From positions 170,728 to 190,727 of the forward strand of contig JAKLKB010000002.1 of assembly GCA_023150835.1 (NCBI GenBank): 20,000 nt of DNA. Reading direction: 5' to 3'. Each line of letters opens with the position of its first letter. Position 1 is the first letter of the stretch. The notes beneath the pieces are model-generated. The model had not been told where the DNA came from, did not search any database, and saw only the letters and a program-made list of their open reading frames with translations. The stretch is from Myxococcota bacterium (GTDB taxonomy: Bacteria > Myxococcota_C > UBA6777). This document shows, in pieces, positions 75-9,603 of the stretch. Position numbers and translations under genes: made by a program.

Positions 75-536
75 CCACTTCATCTCTCCCCCGCCTGATC
101 TGCCCGCTCTCCAAACCTTCTTCCCTACAACCCTTCTTGCTCTCGCCTCAAAACGCTCTCGCTGTGTTGTCAAAAGTACACTGTGAAAATGCCGTTGCAC
201 GCGCTCTCCATCACAACACACGACAAAAACCCCGTCGAAACGCTCGAATGCTTCGTATGGATCGCACCGTCCGCTGTTTTCGACGTCGGCGATCGCACAC
301 AACGAATACATCCTCCTTCACAATAACCTATCCAAAAGAAACACCTTTTTCTTTCTCTCGATCACATTTCTGAGGTGGTCTTGTTCTTGCTTTGGTGCAC
401 GCCGCCTTCCGAAAAGCAAATACTCGTTTAAAACAACGGATACAAGGCGAAGGCGCACAAGCCAAACAAGAAACTCAGCACAAAGGACGCCTCCCAAAGC
501 GCCCTCTGTGGCTCTCTCCATCCTAAAGGAAAGAAT

Positions 537-1967
537 ATGCGTGTAGATGTTGTGATCGTCGGTGCGGGCGTTGCGGGTGCAGCCTTGGCGACGGCGTTGG
601 GTCGTGCAGGTTTTCAGGTCGCCTTGATCGACCGTAGCCCTCATATTCCCGAAGTAATCGCTGGAGAACTCCTCCAACCGGGAGGATTCCAAGCCCTTGA
701 ATCGCTCCATCTCGAAGAAGCGGTCGAAGCCATCGACGCTCAAAAGATCATCGGCTTTTCTGTCCTCCAAGGCGAAGAAGGCCAAGCCCTCGCCTACCCC
801 CCACGCAGCGAAAGCAAAGAACACCCCCACGCCGAAACCAAAGGCTACGCTTTCCGCCATCACCGTTTTGTGGGCCGCTTGCGCACACTCGCTCAAGAAA
901 CCCCTCATGTTCGCTTTCTGATCGGTCAAGTCAGCGATCTGATCATCGAACAGGGCCGTGTGCGAGGTCTGTGTTATCGGGACGCTGAGGAAAAACAACA
1001 AACGATCTACGCCGATCTGACCGTTGCAGCCGATGGACGGGCCTCTCGATTGCGCAGCCAACTCAGCCAAGGCGCACAGCCCGAACAAGTCTCGTATTCG
1101 ATCGGCGTCTTGCTCAAAGATGTCCCCCTTCCTTTTCCACAACACGGACATGTCTTCCTTACCCAACCTGCCCCCACGCTCGCTTATCCTATCGCAACCC
1201 ACGCGATCCGCCTGCTTGTCGACTTCCCGGGAAAACTCCCCAAACAAAGCAACGGCGAGATGGCCGATTATCTGCTCTCTTCGCTACTTCCGCAGATGCC
1301 CGCCTCCCTCCACGACGCCATCCGCCGCGCCGTCGAAGAGGGAGCCATCCAAACCATGCAAAATATCCGTATGCGCCCTCCTAGCCCCACCCTCCACGGA
1401 GCCGTCCTGCTCGGCGATGCCTACAATATGCGCCATCCCATGACAGGTTCCGGGATGACCGTCGCCCTCAACGATGTCCGCTTGCTCGTTGAAGCCCTTC
1501 AATCCGCCCACTTTCATCACCCCCCTGCTCTCGACAAAGCCATCCAAAGCTTCTACCAAAAACGCGAATCTCTCGCTGCAACCGTCGATATGCTTGCTGG
1601 CGCTCTCTACGAGATCTTTCGCGCCAAGGATACCACCCACGCCCTGATGCGCGATGCCGTCTTGCGTTATTGGCAACTCGGAGGCTTCGCCGTTTCTGGA
1701 CCCATGTCTCTGCTCTCAGGCATGGCCCCCAAACCCTTGATGCTGCTCACACACTTCTTTGCTGTGGCCTTCATCGAAGCCGGCCAACGCTTGTTGCGCG
1801 CCCCCACCCAACCCCAACGCATCTTCCGCGACTTACAAGATGTTTTTCGCCTTGTATCGGGCGCATTCACGATCATACAACCCCAGATCCCACGTGGGCT
1901 GCGCATCTTTTCTCCCCTCGCCACCGCACTCTATCCCACCCCGCTCTCTTCCCAAACCAAAGGCTAA
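537..1967 (+). CDS. Squalene monooxygenase (squalene epoxidase, SQLE/ERG1 family FAD monooxygenase)
   Basis: Rossmann motif IVGAGVAG; GELLQPGG; TVAADG; GDAYNMRHPMTGSGMTVALND; C-terminal LAGALYEIF...GPMSLLSG...HFFAVA, all typical of SQLE/ERG1. SD-like aaggaaag just before ATG 537. Confidence 0.9.
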   Translation: MRVDVVIVGAGVAGAALATALGRAGFQVALIDRSPHIPEVIAGELLQPGGFQALESLHLEEAVEAIDAQKIIGFSVLQGEEGQALAYPPRSESKEHPHAETKGYAFRHHRFVGRLRTLAQETPHVRFLIGQVSDLIIEQGRVRGLCYRDAEEKQQTIYADLTVAADGRASRLRSQLSQGAQPEQVSYSIGVLLKDVPLPFPQHGHVFLTQPAPTLAYPIATHAIRLLVDFPGKLPKQSNGEMADYLLSSLLPQMPASLHDAIRRAVEEGAIQTMQNIRMRPPSPTLHGAVLLGDAYNMRHPMTGSGMTVALNDVRLLVEALQSAHFHHPPALDKAIQSFYQKRESLAATVDMLAGALYEIFRAKDTTHALMRDAVLRYWQLGGFAVSGPMSLLSGMAPKPLMLLTHFFAVAFIEAGQRLLRAPTQPQRIFRDLQDVFRLVSGAFTIIQPQIPRGLRIFSPLATALYPTPLSSQTKG

Positions 1968-2338: not shown

Positions 2339-2736
2339 CTTTGCGAAGCGCGCAACTCCCGTTGGTCGTTGTCCGTGGACTCTTCTTTTCGGTATCCTCT
2401 GCGTGATGCCCGCGTTTTGTACCCACATCACACAACGGGCGGATCTCGTATCACACCAACGCACAAGCTATGGAGCCCCTCCCCACGCAGCCCACCCCAC
2501 GCAAAGAAGCAACACCCGCCACCACCGATGTTGGTGATGCTCACCACGCTCCATGCTGGCAACGCACACCATGAGCGATGTTGTTGACCTCGCAAGGTGT
2601 TTTGTGCTTTTCTGTCGGCCACTCTCGCGCCGACCTCACACAAACACTTCGTTCCAACAACGTTGTACACGCGGCCCACAAACCAACACAACTCATCTAT
2701 CACCCTACAACCTTCGGCTGTATCGCAGGCTTTTTG

Positions 2737-4032
2737 ATGAAATCACTCAACCATCTACCCCAACCCCCATCCCCAACCTCTTCCTCCCACACAAGCCCTT
2801 TCTTTCATGCGCAATACCTCGAACGATCCGAGCATTACGCGTATGCCGCCACCTTTTCTATTAGTTGGCTGTTTCTGTTCGGGCTTTTGGCGCTTGGCCT
2901 TGGCATCGCCTACTGGTCTTTGGCAGCGTGGGAAACCTACTTCGTCAACGACCCCTATTACAGGGAGCTACGAGATCTCACGGCGATCGCAAACGCCACC
3001 ACTGCCCTTGTGGTCACTCTCCCTCCGCTGATCCTGCTCCAACTACTTTTCCACTCCACCACGCCTTGGGTTCAACGCGCACAAGCCTATTATGGCGGGC
3101 TTTGGGTGGCTTGGTGGCTGACGCTTTGGATCGGTATGGGCCTTCCCTTCGGCGGTTCCGCTGGAACTCTCTCGATCCTCTCTGTCGCTGCGCTCCTGAC
3201 GCTCGTTGATCAACGCCGCAATCTTCTGCTCAACAAACAAGCCCCCATCCTCGGTGCGATCGCGCTTTTGCTCGCGGGCCTACTTTCCTTTCCGATCTTT
3301 GGAGCCCTCCTCTGGAAAGCTGCCCCTTGGCTGGCCCTACTCTTGGGCTTTATCGCGATGCGCACCTTCCCCTTCAAAGACGATCCTCGCGGCATCTTTG
3401 TGATCTCTGCGTTGTTTGTGTTTAGCTTTGGCCCTTGGCTCACTACACACCCCCGTTATACGGGGTTTTTGAGCCTCGCTCGTTACAACGCTCTCGACGA
3501 CTCCGCCGCACAACACGCCCTCCGCTCCCTCCACACAGATCACAAACACCTTCCCTCCCTCCGCTTTTACGCCATGCTCTACCCCCTCACCAAATCCCCT
3601 TCCCTCCGACCCCAAACCACTCGCCTGTTGCTCGTGCATTGGTCACAAAATCCCAACCATCGGCCTTTTCCAACAGCCTTCCTCCGCCAACATTGCACAG
3701 CCCTCGATCTCCCCACCCTCCAAAAACAACTCCATGACTCCATACTCCAAAAACGCCTACTCACCGAGCTCTTCGCCTACCTCCGCTCCCCTCAAACACG
3801 CGACGACGCCCGTTGGCTTCTGCTTGCTCTCCAAAAAAGCTGGCCTCACCATCACCACGCCTTCCAAACACACCTTCAACCCGCCACTTTCAAACCTTCC
3901 CCTCACCTCTTTCCTCCACCTCGCATACACGCATCCCTCAAAACAGCCCTTCCCTCCGCCACTTCCAAACCCACATCCCTCAAAACAGCCCTTCCCTCCG
4001 CCACTTCCAAACCCACGACGCAAAGGAAATAG
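2737..4032 (+). CDS. Hypothetical multi-pass membrane protein (paralog of the downstream gene)
   Basis: Long ORF (2578..4032; ATG 2737 chosen, start uncertain) with about 6-7 hydrophobic segments then a helical Leu/His/Gln-rich region. Shares motifs with 4038..5972. Confidence 0.7.
   Translation: MKSLNHLPQPPSPTSSSHTSPFFHAQYLERSEHYAYAATFSISWLFLFGLLALGLGIAYWSLAAWETYFVNDPYYRELRDLTAIANATTALVVTLPPLILLQLLFHSTTPWVQRAQAYYGGLWVAWWLTLWIGMGLPFGGSAGTLSILSVAALLTLVDQRRNLLLNKQAPILGAIALLLAGLLSFPIFGALLWKAAPWLALLLGFIAMRTFPFKDDPRGIFVISALFVFSFGPWLTTHPRYTGFLSLARYNALDDSAAQHALRSLHTDHKHLPSLRFYAMLYPLTKSPSLRPQTTRLLLVHWSQNPNHRPFPTAFLRQHCTALDLPTLQKQLHDSILQKRLLTELFAYLRSPQTRDDARWLLLALQKSWPHHHHAFQTHLQPATFKPSPHLFPPPRIHASLKTALPSATSKPTSLKTALPSATSKPTTQRK
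3932..4015 (+). repeat. Perfect 42-bp tandem duplication at CDS 3' end (SLKTALPSATSKPT x2)
   Basis: catccctcaaaacagcccttccctccgccacttccaaaccca twice. Confidence 0.95.
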
Positions 4033-4037
4033 CCTTC

Positions 4038-5972
4038 ATGCACAACGAGACACGGGCTTTCATGCGCCCAAACGGCTTTTTTTGGCTTTCTCTTGTGGTG
4101 ATGGCGGCTGGTTTGGGTTTTTGGGGTCATCTGCATTGGCAAAGCCCGCCTTGGCATGACCAAGCCTCCCTTCCATTGAGGCTTTCCGCGATCGGTGGGC
4201 ATGCTCTCTGCGGTGCGTTGTTGATCGGTTTTTTCGTGGGCTTGGCCCCCCTCTCTTTGCGTGCCGCGATCCTTGAACACCCGCGCCTTTTTGCGATATC
4301 GCGAGGATATCTCTTGCTTTGGTGGTGCGTGGCGTGGGCGGGCATGGGCCTTCCGTTGTTTGGGTGGGCGGGGATTCTTGTCTGGGGGGTGTGCGCCTTG
4401 GTATATGCTTCCCATCAAAACCGCGAAGCGAGCTACGCTGAGACCTTACAAGCCGCCCTTCCCTTCGGTGTTTTGGGTGGAATGATGATCCAGTTCGCTC
4501 CTGCTGCTTTGGCGTGGCTTTGGTGGATCGCCCCTTGGTTCGGGCTTATTCTAGCACTATGCAGTCTCCCGCTTTGGCGCTGGACCTCCGATACGCGAGG
4601 GGCCTTGCTTGGGATCTTGCTTCTGCTCTTTGGGCTTGGCCCTTGGCTCGCTCGTGAACAGCGATACACAAACGCCCTCTCTCTCGCCCAATCTTCCGAT
4701 CTTCAACCCGCGACTCTCCGCCCTTTCCTTCGCCGTCTCGTCCAAGAAACCGCGATCCCCACCTCTCACACTCAAAAGCTCTTCGGTCTCTTTGTGGCTC
4801 GGCCCAATACACAACACGAAGCCCTCCGCTGTCTTCTCCTCCATTGGACCCGCCGATCGACCCCTTCTGCTCTTCCGCAACCCCTCCTTCAACAGATCAC
4901 TTGGAACGCACGCACCGAACGCCTCTTGCGCGAACAACTGCTCCCGCACCCTTCCCATCAAGCGGCTCTACGACAACAAGCCCTCGCCCTGCTTTCTTCT
5001 CCCCAAGACGCTCCGCTCGCAGCGCATCTGTTGTCTTTCTTTGCTCGCCACCTCCCACAACATCGCCCCATACTCTCCGCTTCGATCTCCACCCTTTACT
5101 TCTCTTCCACACACCAAGATCCCCTTTACATCGACCTTCTCCGATCACTGCTCCAACCCATACACGGAAAAGACGCATCCATCGCGCTTTTGCGCTTCTT
5201 TTTTCAGCACCACCCCCAACAGCCCGACGCCCAAAAACAACAATGGCTCCGCGCTCTCCTTTCCTTAAACGCCCAAGACACCGCACTCTTGCGACGCACC
5301 TTCTCCGAACCCATCCGCGCACAGATCCGACAGCACTTGCGATCCCTCGACACACCACAACAGATCCTTGGGATGCAGCTACTCGCCCACCTCGGCCACT
5401 CCGACTCCGAGTGGCTCGCCACCTTTTGGGATACCCTGCCCCCCTCTTTTTTGGACACCAAGCTGCGCCATCCTCATCCTTCTTTGCGCGCCTACGCCCA
5501 CGCCCTGCGTTTCCAGCAATGGGCCTCTTACCCCTTACGCAACCAACAACTCCTCCAAGCCCTCCGAGATCCCTCCCCGCTCGTCCGACACCTCGCCCTC
5601 TCCGCCTTCCCTTCCATCCACCAACAACTCCAACACATCGCTCCGCTCGCCCCCATCGATCCTCGCCTCCATCCCTTGCTCTTCCAAACTGCCCTTCAAG
5701 CACTCCGCGCACAACCCCAAGATATCGAACCCATCGCTTACACCCTCTCCCGTCTCCACCTCACAACCACCCAAAAACAACAAGCCTTCTCCGCTGCCAA
5801 AACACTCCTCCCCCTCCAACAAGCCCGATCTGCCCGTTTTCTCCGCTCTCTCTTTGCTCTGCTCGCCACCCTCGAACCCCAACCCACCACACGCCCCACC
5901 ACGCAACCTATCACGCGCCCCACCACACAACCCATCACGCGCCCCACCGCACGCCCCGCCCCAGCACGATAA
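4038..5972 (+). CDS. Hypothetical multi-pass membrane protein with C-terminal HEAT/ARM-like helical region
   Basis: ATG 4038 with SD-like aaggaaa, 5 nt after the previous stop. N-terminal TM segments. HEAT-like motifs LLQALRDPSPLVRHLALSAF and LRHPHPSLRAYA. PTTRPTTQPITR repeat tail. Confidence 0.75.
   Translation: MHNETRAFMRPNGFFWLSLVVMAAGLGFWGHLHWQSPPWHDQASLPLRLSAIGGHALCGALLIGFFVGLAPLSLRAAILEHPRLFAISRGYLLLWWCVAWAGMGLPLFGWAGILVWGVCALVYASHQNREASYAETLQAALPFGVLGGMMIQFAPAALAWLWWIAPWFGLILALCSLPLWRWTSDTRGALLGILLLLFGLGPWLAREQRYTNALSLAQSSDLQPATLRPFLRRLVQETAIPTSHTQKLFGLFVARPNTQHEALRCLLLHWTRRSTPSALPQPLLQQITWNARTERLLREQLLPHPSHQAALRQQALALLSSPQDAPLAAHLLSFFARHLPQHRPILSASISTLYFSSTHQDPLYIDLLRSLLQPIHGKDASIALLRFFFQHHPQQPDAQKQQWLRALLSLNAQDTALLRRTFSEPIRAQIRQHLRSLDTPQQILGMQLLAHLGHSDSEWLATFWDTLPPSFLDTKLRHPHPSLRAYAHALRFQQWASYPLRNQQLLQALRDPSPLVRHLALSAFPSIHQQLQHIAPLAPIDPRLHPLLFQTALQALRAQPQDIEPIAYTLSRLHLTTTQKQQAFSAAKTLLPLQQARSARFLRSLFALLATLEPQPTTRPTTQPITRPTTQPITRPTARPAPAR
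5880..5958 (+). repeat. ~24-bp degenerate coding repeat (QPITRPTT-like) at CDS 3' end
   Basis: QPTTRPTTQPITRPTTQPITRPTARP. Confidence 0.85.
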
Positions 5973-5976
5973 ATGT

Positions 5977-7023
5977 CTACTTGATACAACGCAACAGCCC
6001 GACATCGCAGCGTTGGCCGGTTGCGCAGTCGCTGTCCTGCAAGCAACCGAGACACACGCGGCGCTGGCCGAAGGTCAAGCATTTGTCGTAGCCAACAGCA
6101 ACGCATTGGCTATCGTTGTTGCAAGGACGTGCTTGACATTCTCCTCCGAGGCAGCGGGGAAATCCTGACGCACAATCGGCGTCCTTCGTGCATTGAACGC
6201 AGCGCTTTTCGGTCGAACAAAATGGCAGAGCGATCGAACAATCGCTGGCGTCTTTGCACCCACACGATCCCTCGACACATCGGGGCTTTTGCGGATCACC
6301 AAGACAATCGTCTGCGCTCGTACATTCGACACAAGCCCCTTCGTTGCAACGCTTCCCCTCGCCACAGTCTTGGTCTTTCTCGCACGCAGGCTTGCAAGTC
6401 CATGTCTTCTCATCGCACTTTGGCGTAGGTGCTTTGCAGTCTGCGCTCGTCACACATTGCACGCAAAACAGCGCTCCACTCGAATCTTTGCGACACTTTT
6501 GACCTGTGGGGCAAGAGCAACCCGCACAGATCCCGCTCAAACATTGGGGGGCATTTTCGCTTGAACAATCCCGATCATCGCGGCATTGCACGCACACATT
6601 GGACTCACAATAACTGCGATCCTTGCTGCTACAATCCCCGTTGCCTCGGCATTGCACACACACGCCTGTTTGACAAAAAGGTCGTGCCGTTCCGCAATCG
6701 CTATCCGCGATGCACTCAAAGTCTCGCTTACACAAGTTGCACACAAGGCAAGTTTTGGCGGTGGGACGACCATCGCTGTTGTTTTGGCGCTCCCAACATT
6801 CCCCGCACAATCGGGCTTTTTCGCGCTCCAATGTACACGTTCGCACCGTACTCCACTTGTTGTTCGAGTCGTAAGTATAAGTGATCTTGCAAGTGCCTTC
6901 GTATTCGCAACGATTGTCTTCTTCTTTTTCGCTTGGTTGGCAGGCCCCCGCCCACACAACAAACCACCACGCGATCAGAGATATCCGCAACCACCGAATG
7001 TTCTGGATGGATCTAGGCTGCAT
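5977..7023 (-). CDS. Cys-rich repeat lipoprotein (myxobacterial type)
   Basis: Signal peptide with lipobox-like WAGA-C. About 10 repeats of a CVQCxxDxDCxxxxPxCxxGxC-like unit. Confidence 0.8.
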   Translation of the reverse strand: MQPRSIQNIRWLRISLIAWWFVVWAGACQPSEKEEDNRCEYEGTCKITYTYDSNNKWSTVRTCTLEREKARLCGECWERQNNSDGRPTAKTCLVCNLCKRDFECIADSDCGTARPFCQTGVCVQCRGNGDCSSKDRSYCESNVCVQCRDDRDCSSENAPQCLSGICAGCSCPTGQKCRKDSSGALFCVQCVTSADCKAPTPKCDEKTWTCKPACEKDQDCGEGKRCNEGACVECTSADDCLGDPQKPRCVEGSCGCKDASDCSIALPFCSTEKRCVQCTKDADCASGFPRCLGGECQARPCNNDSQCVAVGYDKCLTFGQRRVCLGCLQDSDCATGQRCDVGLLRCIK

Positions 7024-7095
7024 CAAGCGCTCTTTTCTTTACTTTCATGGCCCGCGTCCCTCCCCAACGGAGCCATCGCGTCCAAGGGATGGGGA

Positions 7096-7708: not shown

Positions 7709-9376
7709 TCAGGCGTCGGAGTCTTCGGATGGATCGAAGAAGATGCGTTCTTGGTGTTCTTGTTCTTCCCGTCCTTCTTCGTGATAAGAGCCGCCACCTT
7801 CGGGAAGTTCGATGCGACGACTGGGCCGGTCAAACAAGTCGATCAACAGGGCCTCAGCATCGTCATCTCCTGCTTTGGCGAGGTTGGTGGCGATCATCGC
7901 AGCGATCAATTGGAGCATCTCTGCGGACATACACGACGAAGCCCCTTGTTTGATCAACATATCTTTAATCTTGTCCATCAACTTGCGCTGCCCGGGCTTT
8001 TTTAACACCTTGGTCAACAGGCTCATCAACTCACCCGAAGGGATCACGCCCTGTTGAGCGAGGCTTGCGATGCGGTTTGAGATCCCCGTCACGTCGTGCA
8101 ACATCACGGTATGCAGGTTTTGTAAAGCCACCGCCTCTTGGGCGCTGGCCCATTTGAAGACCAACTGTTTGAGCTGCTGACGCGGAGAGTCGGGCGTTCC
8201 GTCTTGGGCGGATGTTTGGGTCGTTGCGTTCATCAACAGATCTTGAACCGAACCCGAAGTCGGCTTGTCGGTGGTTTGGGCTGCGGTCTGTGCGCTCGCT
8301 GCGGTCTGTGCGCTCGCTGCCGTCTGTGGGAGAGCTTGGGAAAGCTCCGCTTTGTTTTGTGAAAGCTGCGCCATCCCCGCCCCAAGAGTCGCGGTTTGGG
8401 CAGTCGTCTGTAAGGTCGATGGTGCAGCCTCCTTCCCACCACCCAACGAGGCATCTGCTTTTCCTGACGCACCTTGCGCGAGATTGTTTTGAAGGGATGC
8501 CTTGTCTGCGGCCTTTTCGGTCGACGCGCCTTGTGCCGAGGCTTGGGCCAGTCCCTTTTCAGCGGTCGACTGTGTACTCTCTGCGGCTTTTCCTTGCAAA
8601 AGGCTTGTTGACTTCGCAGCCTCGGAAAGCCCCTTGCTGTCGAGTCCTTGGGGCTGTGGCAGCGTACCATTTGAGGAAGTCAGCTTCGCTCCGCCGCTTC
8701 CGAGCGGATCCGCCATCCCCGTAGAATGAGCCGCTTTCGTTTGGCCCGACATCCCGACCGAAGCACCTTTGGCGGCGTTTTGCGACGAAAGGCTATCGCC
8801 TTGGGCAGTTCGTGTCCCCTCGGATGCGCCCTGCAAAACGCTGCGCTGGATGGCGCGTGCTTGCGGCGTGCTTTTTGGGGCCAACAGCCCTTTGTCCTCT
8901 TGGCCCTTGGGATCGGCCTTTGCGTCTTTCCCCGATTTCAGCTTCCCACCAAGATCCCCAAATCCAATCGCCGTTCCTGCCTTGCCATCGGCCTTTCCAA
9001 CATCCCCCTCCATCTTTCCCTTTTCGAGGGCTTTTTCAGCAATCAAAAATCCCAACCCCGCCTTGCTCAAACCCGCGCTCGACAAGATGTCATCCTTGCT
9101 CAACAAGTTCCCGAGCGTCGGGGCTTCTGCGCCCAAAAGCTTCGTCGTTTGATGCGTTTCAAAACTGCCCTTTTGAGGGGCTTGTGTTGGAGAGACGGTT
9201 GGCGATGGGTTGGTTTGAGCGGTAGCTTCGCCCTTTGCGACACCTTCGCTGCCTTGGGGGGAACCCTGAATCGTCCCGCCTCCTTGCGCGGGGCCTTTCG
9301 CAATCGTCCCATCCGTCAACGGAGGCATCCCTCCTTGGAGCATCGGTGTGGGTGGGGGTGAGATGATCCGCGACAT
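7709..9376 (-). CDS. Hypothetical protein, long A/G/S/T/Q/K low-complexity region with helical C-terminal domain and acidic tail
   Basis: 555-aa ORF from ATG 9376 with SD GAGG. Internal 18-bp repeat (QTAASA). No recognisable catalytic motif. Confidence 0.75.
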   Translation of the reverse strand: MSRIISPPPTPMLQGGMPPLTDGTIAKGPAQGGGTIQGSPQGSEGVAKGEATAQTNPSPTVSPTQAPQKGSFETHQTTKLLGAEAPTLGNLLSKDDILSSAGLSKAGLGFLIAEKALEKGKMEGDVGKADGKAGTAIGFGDLGGKLKSGKDAKADPKGQEDKGLLAPKSTPQARAIQRSVLQGASEGTRTAQGDSLSSQNAAKGASVGMSGQTKAAHSTGMADPLGSGGAKLTSSNGTLPQPQGLDSKGLSEAAKSTSLLQGKAAESTQSTAEKGLAQASAQGASTEKAADKASLQNNLAQGASGKADASLGGGKEAAPSTLQTTAQTATLGAGMAQLSQNKAELSQALPQTAASAQTAASAQTAAQTTDKPTSGSVQDLLMNATTQTSAQDGTPDSPRQQLKQLVFKWASAQEAVALQNLHTVMLHDVTGISNRIASLAQQGVIPSGELMSLLTKVLKKPGQRKLMDKIKDMLIKQGASSCMSAEMLQLIAAMIATNLAKAGDDDAEALLIDLFDRPSRRIELPEGGGSYHEEGREEQEHQERIFFDPSEDSDA

Positions 9377-9603
9377 GTGTTTGTCCTCGCAAAAAAACGC
9401 TGTGAAGCGCACTCCGACCCAACGAAGCGCATCAAGTATCTTGTTGATATAGCCGCTTTTTTGCGCAAAAAGCAACTTCCTCTCTGATCATCCTCGCCAA
9501 ATCTCCCCCCAAAGTTGCGCCCGCCACGCTGGTTTGCTTTCTGACCTCTTGCATCGTATACATCCCTGCACGTTCTCTTTGGTGCCACTTGTCGGATGAG
9601 TTT

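Follow-up and report, generated by a model that had tools for sequence, protein, structure and literature searches.

The window analysed here is a 20,000-nucleotide (nt) stretch of contig C235 (JAKLKB010000002.1, positions 170728-190727) in the 7.56 Mb assembly of a Myxococcota bacterium (GCA_023150835.1, genome G000; 239 contigs, 93% complete). Near its start, at 537-1967 on the plus strand, lies an open frame for a 476-amino-acid (aa) squalene monooxygenase (SQMO; squalene epoxidase, SE; EC 1.14.14.17), protein P0001. Squalene epoxidase is the first oxygen-dependent enzyme of sterol synthesis. The Pfam family PF08491 (SE) matches residues 159-428 of P0001 with an E-value of 1.6e-79 and 267.3 bits against a cut-off of 20.1, and PF01494 (FAD_binding_3) matches ahead of the SE domain with 76.7 bits. 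In the PDB, human SQLE (6c6n) aligns with 273 bits (E 4.1e-80; query residues 4-413 on chain residues 9-413), compared with 50 bits for the second-best match, and the alignment spans the flavin adenine dinucleotide (FAD), substrate and C-terminal helical domains. Judged from these matches, the product is a genuine bacterial SQMO, and the eukaryote-like character that a preliminary description of this DNA had ascribed to it is borne out by the scores to human SQLE and PF08491.

The ATG at 537 is the earliest ATG, GTG or TTG past the upstream stop, the whole open frame being 511 aa long. Three nucleotides 5' of this ATG, a purine-rich stretch, AAAGGAAAG (525-533, plus strand), can be read from the sequence. 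It may act as a Shine-Dalgarno (SD) site, so that the SD motif of the preliminary description stands as a purine-rich stretch with its consensus only partly matched. The FAD-binding Rossmann motif GAGVAG (GxGxxG; aa 9-14, 561-578, plus strand, as are all features of the gene) follows almost at once: the Rossmann fold runs from residue 4, several FAD-family Pfam matches begin at residues 2-7, and G9, G11 and G14 are invariant in our two alignments, A1 and A2. Because VGAGVAG starts at residue 8, P0001 has no N-terminal extension; the frame of 476 codons is intact, in both respects as originally described. GELLQPGG follows at aa 43-50 (663-686), with E44 and Q47 aligned to human E165 and Q168. 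The GD/MRHP motif block, the LLGDAYNMRHPMTGSGMTVALND region (aa 294-313, 1416-1475), contains D294, R299, H300, P301, T303, G304, G306-A310 and D313, all invariant in A1 and A2; within it, MRHPMTGSGMTVALND occupies aa 298-313 (1428-1475). The C-terminal helical, membrane-associated, substrate-pocket region (aa 353-412, 1593-1772) is delimited by the 6c6n alignment, by column counts and by the domain description in PMC6327030, and comprises LAGALYEIF (aa 353-361), LRYWQLGG (aa 376-383), GPMSLLSG (aa 388-395) and PLMLLTHFFAVAF (aa 400-412). All motifs quoted at the outset, from GELLQPGG through PLMLLTHFFAVAF, are thus present in the translation. F361, H406 and F407 align with human F477, H522 and F523, and together with Q47 and Y217 they preserve the pocket equivalents of human Q168, Y335, F477, H522 and F523. 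P0001 and human SQLE therefore have in common the FAD, substrate and C-terminal helical domains, as these are laid out in PMC6327030, yet the human enzyme has a ~120-aa N-terminal regulatory/membrane domain that P0001 lacks, and P0001 carries ~60 additional C-terminal residues (414-476) without a match in human SQLE.

A Pfam scan of the 18 largest open reading frames (ORFs) of the window, six of which had any match, found no cyclase domain, in agreement with the preliminary description; the oxidosqualene cyclase (OSC) of this genome sits on another contig. G000 carries one SE gene and one cyclase gene, the latter at 37598-39643 of contig C232 (682 aa). The cyclase scores 585.8 bits to human lanosterol synthase versus 151.9 bits to squalene-hopene cyclase, reaches 718.8 bits with NCBIfam osq_cycl and has DCTSE at the catalytic aspartate. 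At the columns of human residues 381, 449 and 453 it has Y, H and I. According to Wei et al. 2016 (PMC4919349), Y381/H449/I453 is the cycloartenol-synthase pattern and I453 tracked cycloartenol in the bacteria studied. The residue pattern points to an OSC of the cycloartenol type. The Fluviicola locus L104, considered as a control for the V/I-453 rule, has V at the 453 column. The neighbours of the C232 gene are non-sterol genes, encoding NamZ, an inositol monophosphatase and an adenylate cyclase.

HMG-CoA reductase is present in G000, so the mevalonate route can supply isoprenoid precursors, and because an OSC is encoded in the same genome, an oxidosqualene-derived protosterol is the likely product of the pathway. 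Searches of G000 returned no match to cytochrome P450 (PF00067), to ERG4/ERG24 (PF01222; the control for this search matched in no genome) or to EBP (PF05241). Since three enzymes of a complete sterol pathway, a C-14 demethylase (CYP51), an ERG24-type C-14 reductase and an EBP isomerase, were not found in G000, the last product of the pathway is probably the protosterol or something close to it. A protosterol end point has been reported for several bacteria with only SQMO and OSC. The number of P450 matches varies sharply across the six genomes of the phylum as defined by GTDB: 0 in G000, 0 in G001, 5 in G002, 2 in G003, 13 in G004 and 20 in G005. Separately, four FA_hydroxylase genes of G000 gave only weak, OlsE-like NCBIfam matches. 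They are not assignable as sterol C-4 oxidases, the only PDB match being Scs7, for one of the three searched, and a 3Beta_HSD search gave 19 generic matches, none of them on the FA_hydroxylase contigs. The earlier expectation that the organism probably makes sterols or other oxidosqualene products is supported by the OSC, with the caveat that squalene synthase, CYP51, ERG24 and EBP were not found in this 93% complete assembly. Likewise, of the enzymes that the preliminary description had named for a search of the genome, the OSC was found, whereas CYP51 and squalene synthase were not.

All three genomes of the genus (G000, G001 and G002) carry SE and OSC. With the gene of squalene synthase (SQS) type of G005, a genome of the sister genus, as query, no match was obtained in any of the three, and a relaxed tblastn search (E 10) returned one fusion protein, P0268, and no other SQS-like match; for the family PF00494, the fusion was the sole match in both G000 and G001, and G002 had none. 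P0268 (1025 aa; contig C90 of G000, locus L096, 7448-10525, minus strand) holds the sole PF00494 domain of G000 and joins a Caroten_synth/CruF-like membrane domain, a polyprenyl synthase and a CrtB/HpnD-like domain, the last with 203.5 bits to HpnD and 165 bits to CrtB, both under the cut-offs. Next to it lies a gene of the CrtI/phytoene-desaturase family (TIGR02734, 574 bits, over the cut-off), and it is also flanked by genes for a methyltransferase and for a protein that combines helix-turn-helix and B12-binding domains and matches CarH weakly. From these neighbours the locus can be read as a carotenoid cluster. The same SQS_PSY domain occurs in open frames of 1005 aa in G001 and 657 aa in G004. 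A squalene synthase as required for a complete sterol pathway, either SQS or the HpnC/HpnD/HpnE set, was not found in G000. As the genus genomes are only 93%, 86% and 64% complete, a gap in the assemblies may account for its absence.

To place P0001 among its homologues, 1.84 billion representatives were searched, which gave 402 proteins at E ≤1e-30. From the best 150 of these 402, 120 were used, the others being dropped because fewer than 390 query residues were covered or because they exceeded 720 aa. A FastTree of 157 rows combined the 120 with 20 named bacterial loci, 16 other P0001 matches and the query, and hand-chosen clade representatives then formed a final tree of 76 rows (IQ-TREE, LG+C20+F+G4 with posterior mean site frequencies; supports are ultrafast bootstrap/SH-like approximate likelihood ratio test). 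These 76 rows comprise 23 of a bacterial group here called clade E, 30 eukaryote-containing rows, 11 of a Bacteroidota/Gammaproteobacteria type and 12 of 29 divergent SEs (from the phylum of genome G041). Eukaryote names stand on six of the 30 rows (Chara, Aquilegia, Oryza, Fabomonas, Cavostelium and a Physcia, i.e., fungal, cluster); of ten unnamed tree rows looked up, four could be named as eukaryotes (Chara, Fabomonas, Cavostelium and Physcia). The tree has no outgroup because a tblastn search of G000 with P0001 found only the query itself and no paralogue. It is thus unrooted, its polarity is no more than suggested by the divergent SEs, and the amino-acid composition of many rows deviates from the average.

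In this tree, the query falls in a five-row clade (100/100) with L006, L005, P0004 and P0005, within clade E. The 12 divergent SEs are set apart by a 100/100 split, and a 41-row clade (100/100) unites all eukaryote-type rows with the Bacteroidota/Gammaproteobacteria type nested among them (100/99); none of the 23 clade-E rows falls within it. Rather than a resolved clade, clade E is a grade, with its label requiring two changes on the tree. Its members L005, L006, L007 (isolate M3003), L008, P0003, P0005 and P0014 are all metagenome-assembled genomes (MAGs) labelled Myxococcales, Myxococcota or Deltaproteobacteria; ten of ten clade-E representatives looked up are metagenomic, and every sequence of the group comes from a MAG or a metagenome. 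When clade E was used as a profile query and the 8000 candidates with the most words in common were scored, 23 clusters of bacterial or metagenomic origin (557-703 bits) came first, followed by eukaryotes; no cultured organism was named, an absence that is not evidence because cultured myxobacteria may have been crowded out. The corresponding search with the divergent group named Streptomyces, Nostoc, Amycolatopsis, Sandaracinaceae and Byssovorax, and did not name Stigmatella or Enhygromyxa. By its predicted protein, then, P0001 is placed in a bacterial grade nearest the eukaryotic clade, in a tree built without cultured myxobacterial sequences, and the eukaryote-proximal lineage of the preliminary description is recovered. 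P0001 clusters with Myxococcota-labelled genomes just outside the eukaryotes, as expected of a myxobacterial-type grade. It lies outside the 41-row clade, has Phe rather than Tyr at the column of human Tyr195 and lacks an N-terminal extension, and on these features it does not belong to the eukaryotic SQLE/ERG1 clade.

The single-column character at Tyr195 agrees with the tree. In P0001 this column is occupied by Phe74 (codon 756-758; HMMER alignment to 6c6n). Across clade E it is Phe in 21 of 23 rows and Met in the other two, and it is Phe in 12/12 divergent bacterial SEs; Tyr is found in 7/7 named eukaryotes, in 15/15 Bacteroidota/Gammaproteobacteria loci and in 112 of the 119 remaining representatives. 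At the Q47 and E44 columns, all 23 clade-E rows have Q and E, respectively. In the mutagenesis results of Padyana et al. 2019 (PMC6327030), Tyr195 is called conserved across species and human Y195F loses >90% of its activity. P0001 thus naturally carries Phe at a position considered essential, and it is a candidate enzyme for expression. Among the 29 divergent SEs of the G041 phylum, seven share one frame with an OSC N-terminal domain and two with an SQS (SQS_PSY) domain. Because these Phe-bearing SEs are fused to OSC or SQS domains, Phe at the 195 column appears compatible with a sterol role. The one-frame SE-OSC or SE-SQS_PSY genes are those at loci L111, L114, L116, L119, L120, L123, L125, L132 and L133. 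SE-OSC fusions as such are already known.

In the GTDB set, the phylum of the window genome consists of six species genomes in a single family. SE and OSC co-occur in the same four of the six, and two lack both. The SE loci closest to the query are L006 (98% identical, a Myxococcota MAG) and L005 (79%, a Myxococcales MAG). The clade-E genome G041 (locus L008), labelled Myxococcales, belongs to another, large phylum that was sampled at 401 genomes. M3003 (locus L007, genome G005) is in the same GTDB family and phylum as the window genome, its SQMO is in the same 13-row clade-E subclade as the query (82/99), and, like the window genome, it has an SQMO and OSC set with little downstream. Nevertheless, its SE and OSC are only 44% and 48% identical to those of the window genome, and its genome has 20 P450 matches versus none in G000. 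The gene order differs too: in G005 the SE and OSC genes are divergent neighbours, with a hypothetical gene next and an SQS-type gene two genes on, whereas in the window genome SE and OSC are on separate contigs and no SQS was found.

M3003 is also where this lineage has entered the literature. In the trees shown by Hoshino & Gaucher 2021 (PMC8237579), rooted with outgroups, eukaryotic SQMO and OSC cluster within myxobacterial homologues. "Myxococcales bacterium isolate M3003" appears in Table S1 of that paper, and Table S3 lists it as "Myxobacteria/Cys" with SQMO TNE44725, OSC TNE44726 and an ERG25 homologue (PMC8237579). In the text of the SQMO tree figure, TNE44725 comes right after Nannocystis, Plesiocystis and Enhygromyxa and right before the eukaryotes, and a Bacteroidetes/methanotroph group stands among the eukaryotes (PMC8237579). 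This leaf order, which is that of the figure's extracted text and not a topology, agrees with our tree. Because M3003 is of the same GTDB family and its sequence is in that SQMO tree, a place close to the eukaryotes has already been published for the SQMO of this lineage, which was labelled myxobacterial there. The preliminary description had itself said that nesting in a well-described bacterial SQMO clade would lower the novelty, and the published SQMO/OSC analysis does so. The dispersed SE and OSC, the zero P450 count, the missing SQS of the genus and Phe195 across the grade do not appear in the parts of the compared papers drawn on here, no literature search having been aimed at these features. 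What the gene adds is a well-preserved member, with genome context, of the small uncultured SQMO group nearest the eukaryotes; bacterial sterol synthesis bears on the origin of the eukaryotic sterol pathway and on the use of sterane fossils as eukaryote markers.

Cultured myxobacteria (Enhygromyxa salina, Plesiocystis pacifica, Nannocystis exedens and Stigmatella aurantiaca) share the same entry steps of the pathway (Wei et al. 2016, PMC4919349; Lee et al. 2023, PMC10202945), and the Nannocystineae sequences are those that precede M3003 and the eukaryotes in the published tree text. Enhygromyxa, however, is given in Table S3 of PMC8237579 as proceeding to cholesterol with CYP51, ERG24 and others, none of which was found in G000. 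The SQMOs of the Bacteroidota/Methylococcales type (Fluviicola, Methylothermaceae and Glaciecola; L083, L012 and L059) have in common with P0001 the PF08491 domain and the pairing with an OSC, but they form the 100/99 clade among eukaryote rows, have Tyr195 in 15/15 and are 33-40% identical to the query. The divergent bacterial-type SQMOs (Streptomyces, Nostoc, Sandaracinaceae, a Byssovorax MAG and others) resemble it in Phe at 195 (12/12) and in their linkage to sterol genes. They differ in being only 26-35% identical to P0001, in a Pfam SE score of 72-140 bits versus 267, in His for Gln at the 168 column, in their frequent fusion to OSC or SQS and in lying on the far side of the 100/100 split.

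RNA libraries contain the gene. Mismatch-free RNA-Seq contigs cover 416-2030, 446-2033 and 436-800 plus 802-2039 in three runs from one activated-sludge sample, and a run of another study yielded two short pieces. Such contigs give presence in a library, and strand, ends and level are not readable from them; because their 3' ends coincide with a repeat (below), no transcript boundary is claimed. We take them as a weak hint that the SE gene is transcribed.

Overall, we favour, and hold to be probable, a working SQMO with an unlinked OSC, belonging to the myxobacterial-type grade and inherited in a small uncultured lineage. P0001 would be an FAD monooxygenase working at the membrane, where it turns squalene into 2,3-oxidosqualene. 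This epoxide would then be cyclised by the unlinked OSC of the same genome (C232, 37598-39643), possibly to cycloartenol, to which the residue pattern of the OSC points, and the pathway probably ends at or near the protosterol. The enzyme would have been inherited within this lineage, which is labelled Myxococcota at NCBI and is a six-species phylum in GTDB. The domain make-up, the alignment with the solved human structure, the co-occurrence with an OSC and the place in the tree are shown directly, and from them we infer that the enzyme is active, what is produced, which electron donor serves it and where the squalene comes from. Several observations weigh against it. NCBIfam has no SQMO model, and its best matches to P0001 are UbiH-type families far below their cut-offs. 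Squalene synthase, of SQS or HpnC type, was found in none of the three genus genomes, and P0268 would be a carotenoid gene because its neighbours are CrtI and a CarH-like regulator. Phe74 replaces Tyr195, the position at which human Y195F loses >90% of activity (mutant data of PMC6327030). Finally, the RNA contigs may derive in part from DNA, and they end at repeats.

Some of these observations would fit a different function, in which P0001 is an SE-fold flavoprotein acting on scavenged squalene or on another polyprenyl or carotenoid-type substrate: a squalene synthase was found in 0/3 genus genomes, the only SQS_PSY domain sits in a carotenoid cluster, and Phe stands where the human Y195F mutant described in PMC6327030 is nearly inactive. 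We nevertheless consider this unlikely, because a canonical OSC accompanies the SE in 4/4 SE-bearing genomes of the phylum, Phe-bearing divergent SEs are themselves fused to OSC (7/29) or SQS (2/29), the remaining pocket residues are conserved, and an SQS gap is possible in genomes that are 93%, 86% and 64% complete. Much less credible still is that the gene is a leftover, decaying or silent, from a pathway that the lineage is losing. P450, ERG24, EBP and SQS were indeed not found and two of six phylum genomes lack SE and OSC, but the frame is unbroken and retains every invariant column, the SE is 79% identical at the genus level versus 39-48% for neighbouring membrane genes, the OSC is intact and 75-93% conserved, and full-length contigs are present in RNA libraries. 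A fairly recent transfer of the gene from a eukaryote, in line with the transferred lineage that the preliminary description had offered as an option, is just as improbable. The P0001 motifs closely follow the eukaryotic enzyme, and plant SQLEs (42-45% identity) score like most bacterial matches once the query's own small clade has been passed. Against this, 23/23 clade-E rows fall outside the 100/100 clade of eukaryotes plus Bacteroidota/Gammaproteobacteria, and Phe195 is common to 12/12 divergent bacterial SEs and occurs in 0/7 named eukaryotes. Moreover, the guanine-plus-cytosine (GC) content of the gene (0.54-0.58) lies inside that of the window (0.51-0.59), the neighbourhood is kept in L005 and L006, there is no N-terminal extension, and the outgroup-rooted trees shown in PMC8237579 root within bacteria. 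Beyond the favoured explanation of a working SQMO with an unlinked OSC, a bolder extension of it seems to us possible but doubtful. The genus would make, or at least epoxidise and cyclise towards, a cycloartenol-type protosterol without a recognisable SQS, obtaining squalene via the CrtB/HpnD-like domain of P0268 or scavenging it from prey or sludge lipids, and the Phe-195 SQMO grade, which spans at least two GTDB phyla and uncultured bacteria only, would be the closest extant proxy for the enzyme acquired by eukaryotes.

Downstream of the SE gene, the gene order is the same in L005 and L006, with two membrane paralogues, a Cys-rich repeat protein and further genes. The paralogous proteins (2578-4032 and about 4122-5972, plus strand) are 30% identical to each other over 260 aa; each has several hydrophobic segments, and the C-terminal part is long and helical. 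Pfam and NCBIfam gave no match for either, an Atlas look-up of the neighbouring membrane protein gave only sub-threshold HEAT-repeat leads (0.77), and in L005 the two are 48% and 39% identical. They are followed on the minus strand by a gene for a 349-aa secreted-looking CxxC-repeat protein (5977-7026; NCBIfam Myxo_Cys_RPT, weak, 27.7 bits), which is 74-97% conserved in L005 and L006, and by one for a 588-aa protein of low complexity, enriched in Ala, Gln, Ser, Gly and Thr (7709-9475, minus strand), which has no family match and is 54% identical in L005 and 93% in L006.

Repeats surround the SE gene. A 257-nt element with 29-nt inverted repeats (GGGGCAGCCCCCATA...) at its ends lies at 2004-2260, starting 37 nt past the SE stop, and looks like a member of a miniature inverted-repeat transposable element (MITE) family. 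After it come ~7 copies of a 9-nt tandem unit, CATTCCGTA (2276-2347), and two 36-nt direct repeats occupy 1-73. In the RNA libraries, contig depth over the element at 2004-2260 and over positions 1-267 is 5- to 30-fold above that over the SE gene. Across the window as a whole, 19 of the 20 one-kb bins show a negative GC skew (cumulative -3.87), regardless of the coding strand.

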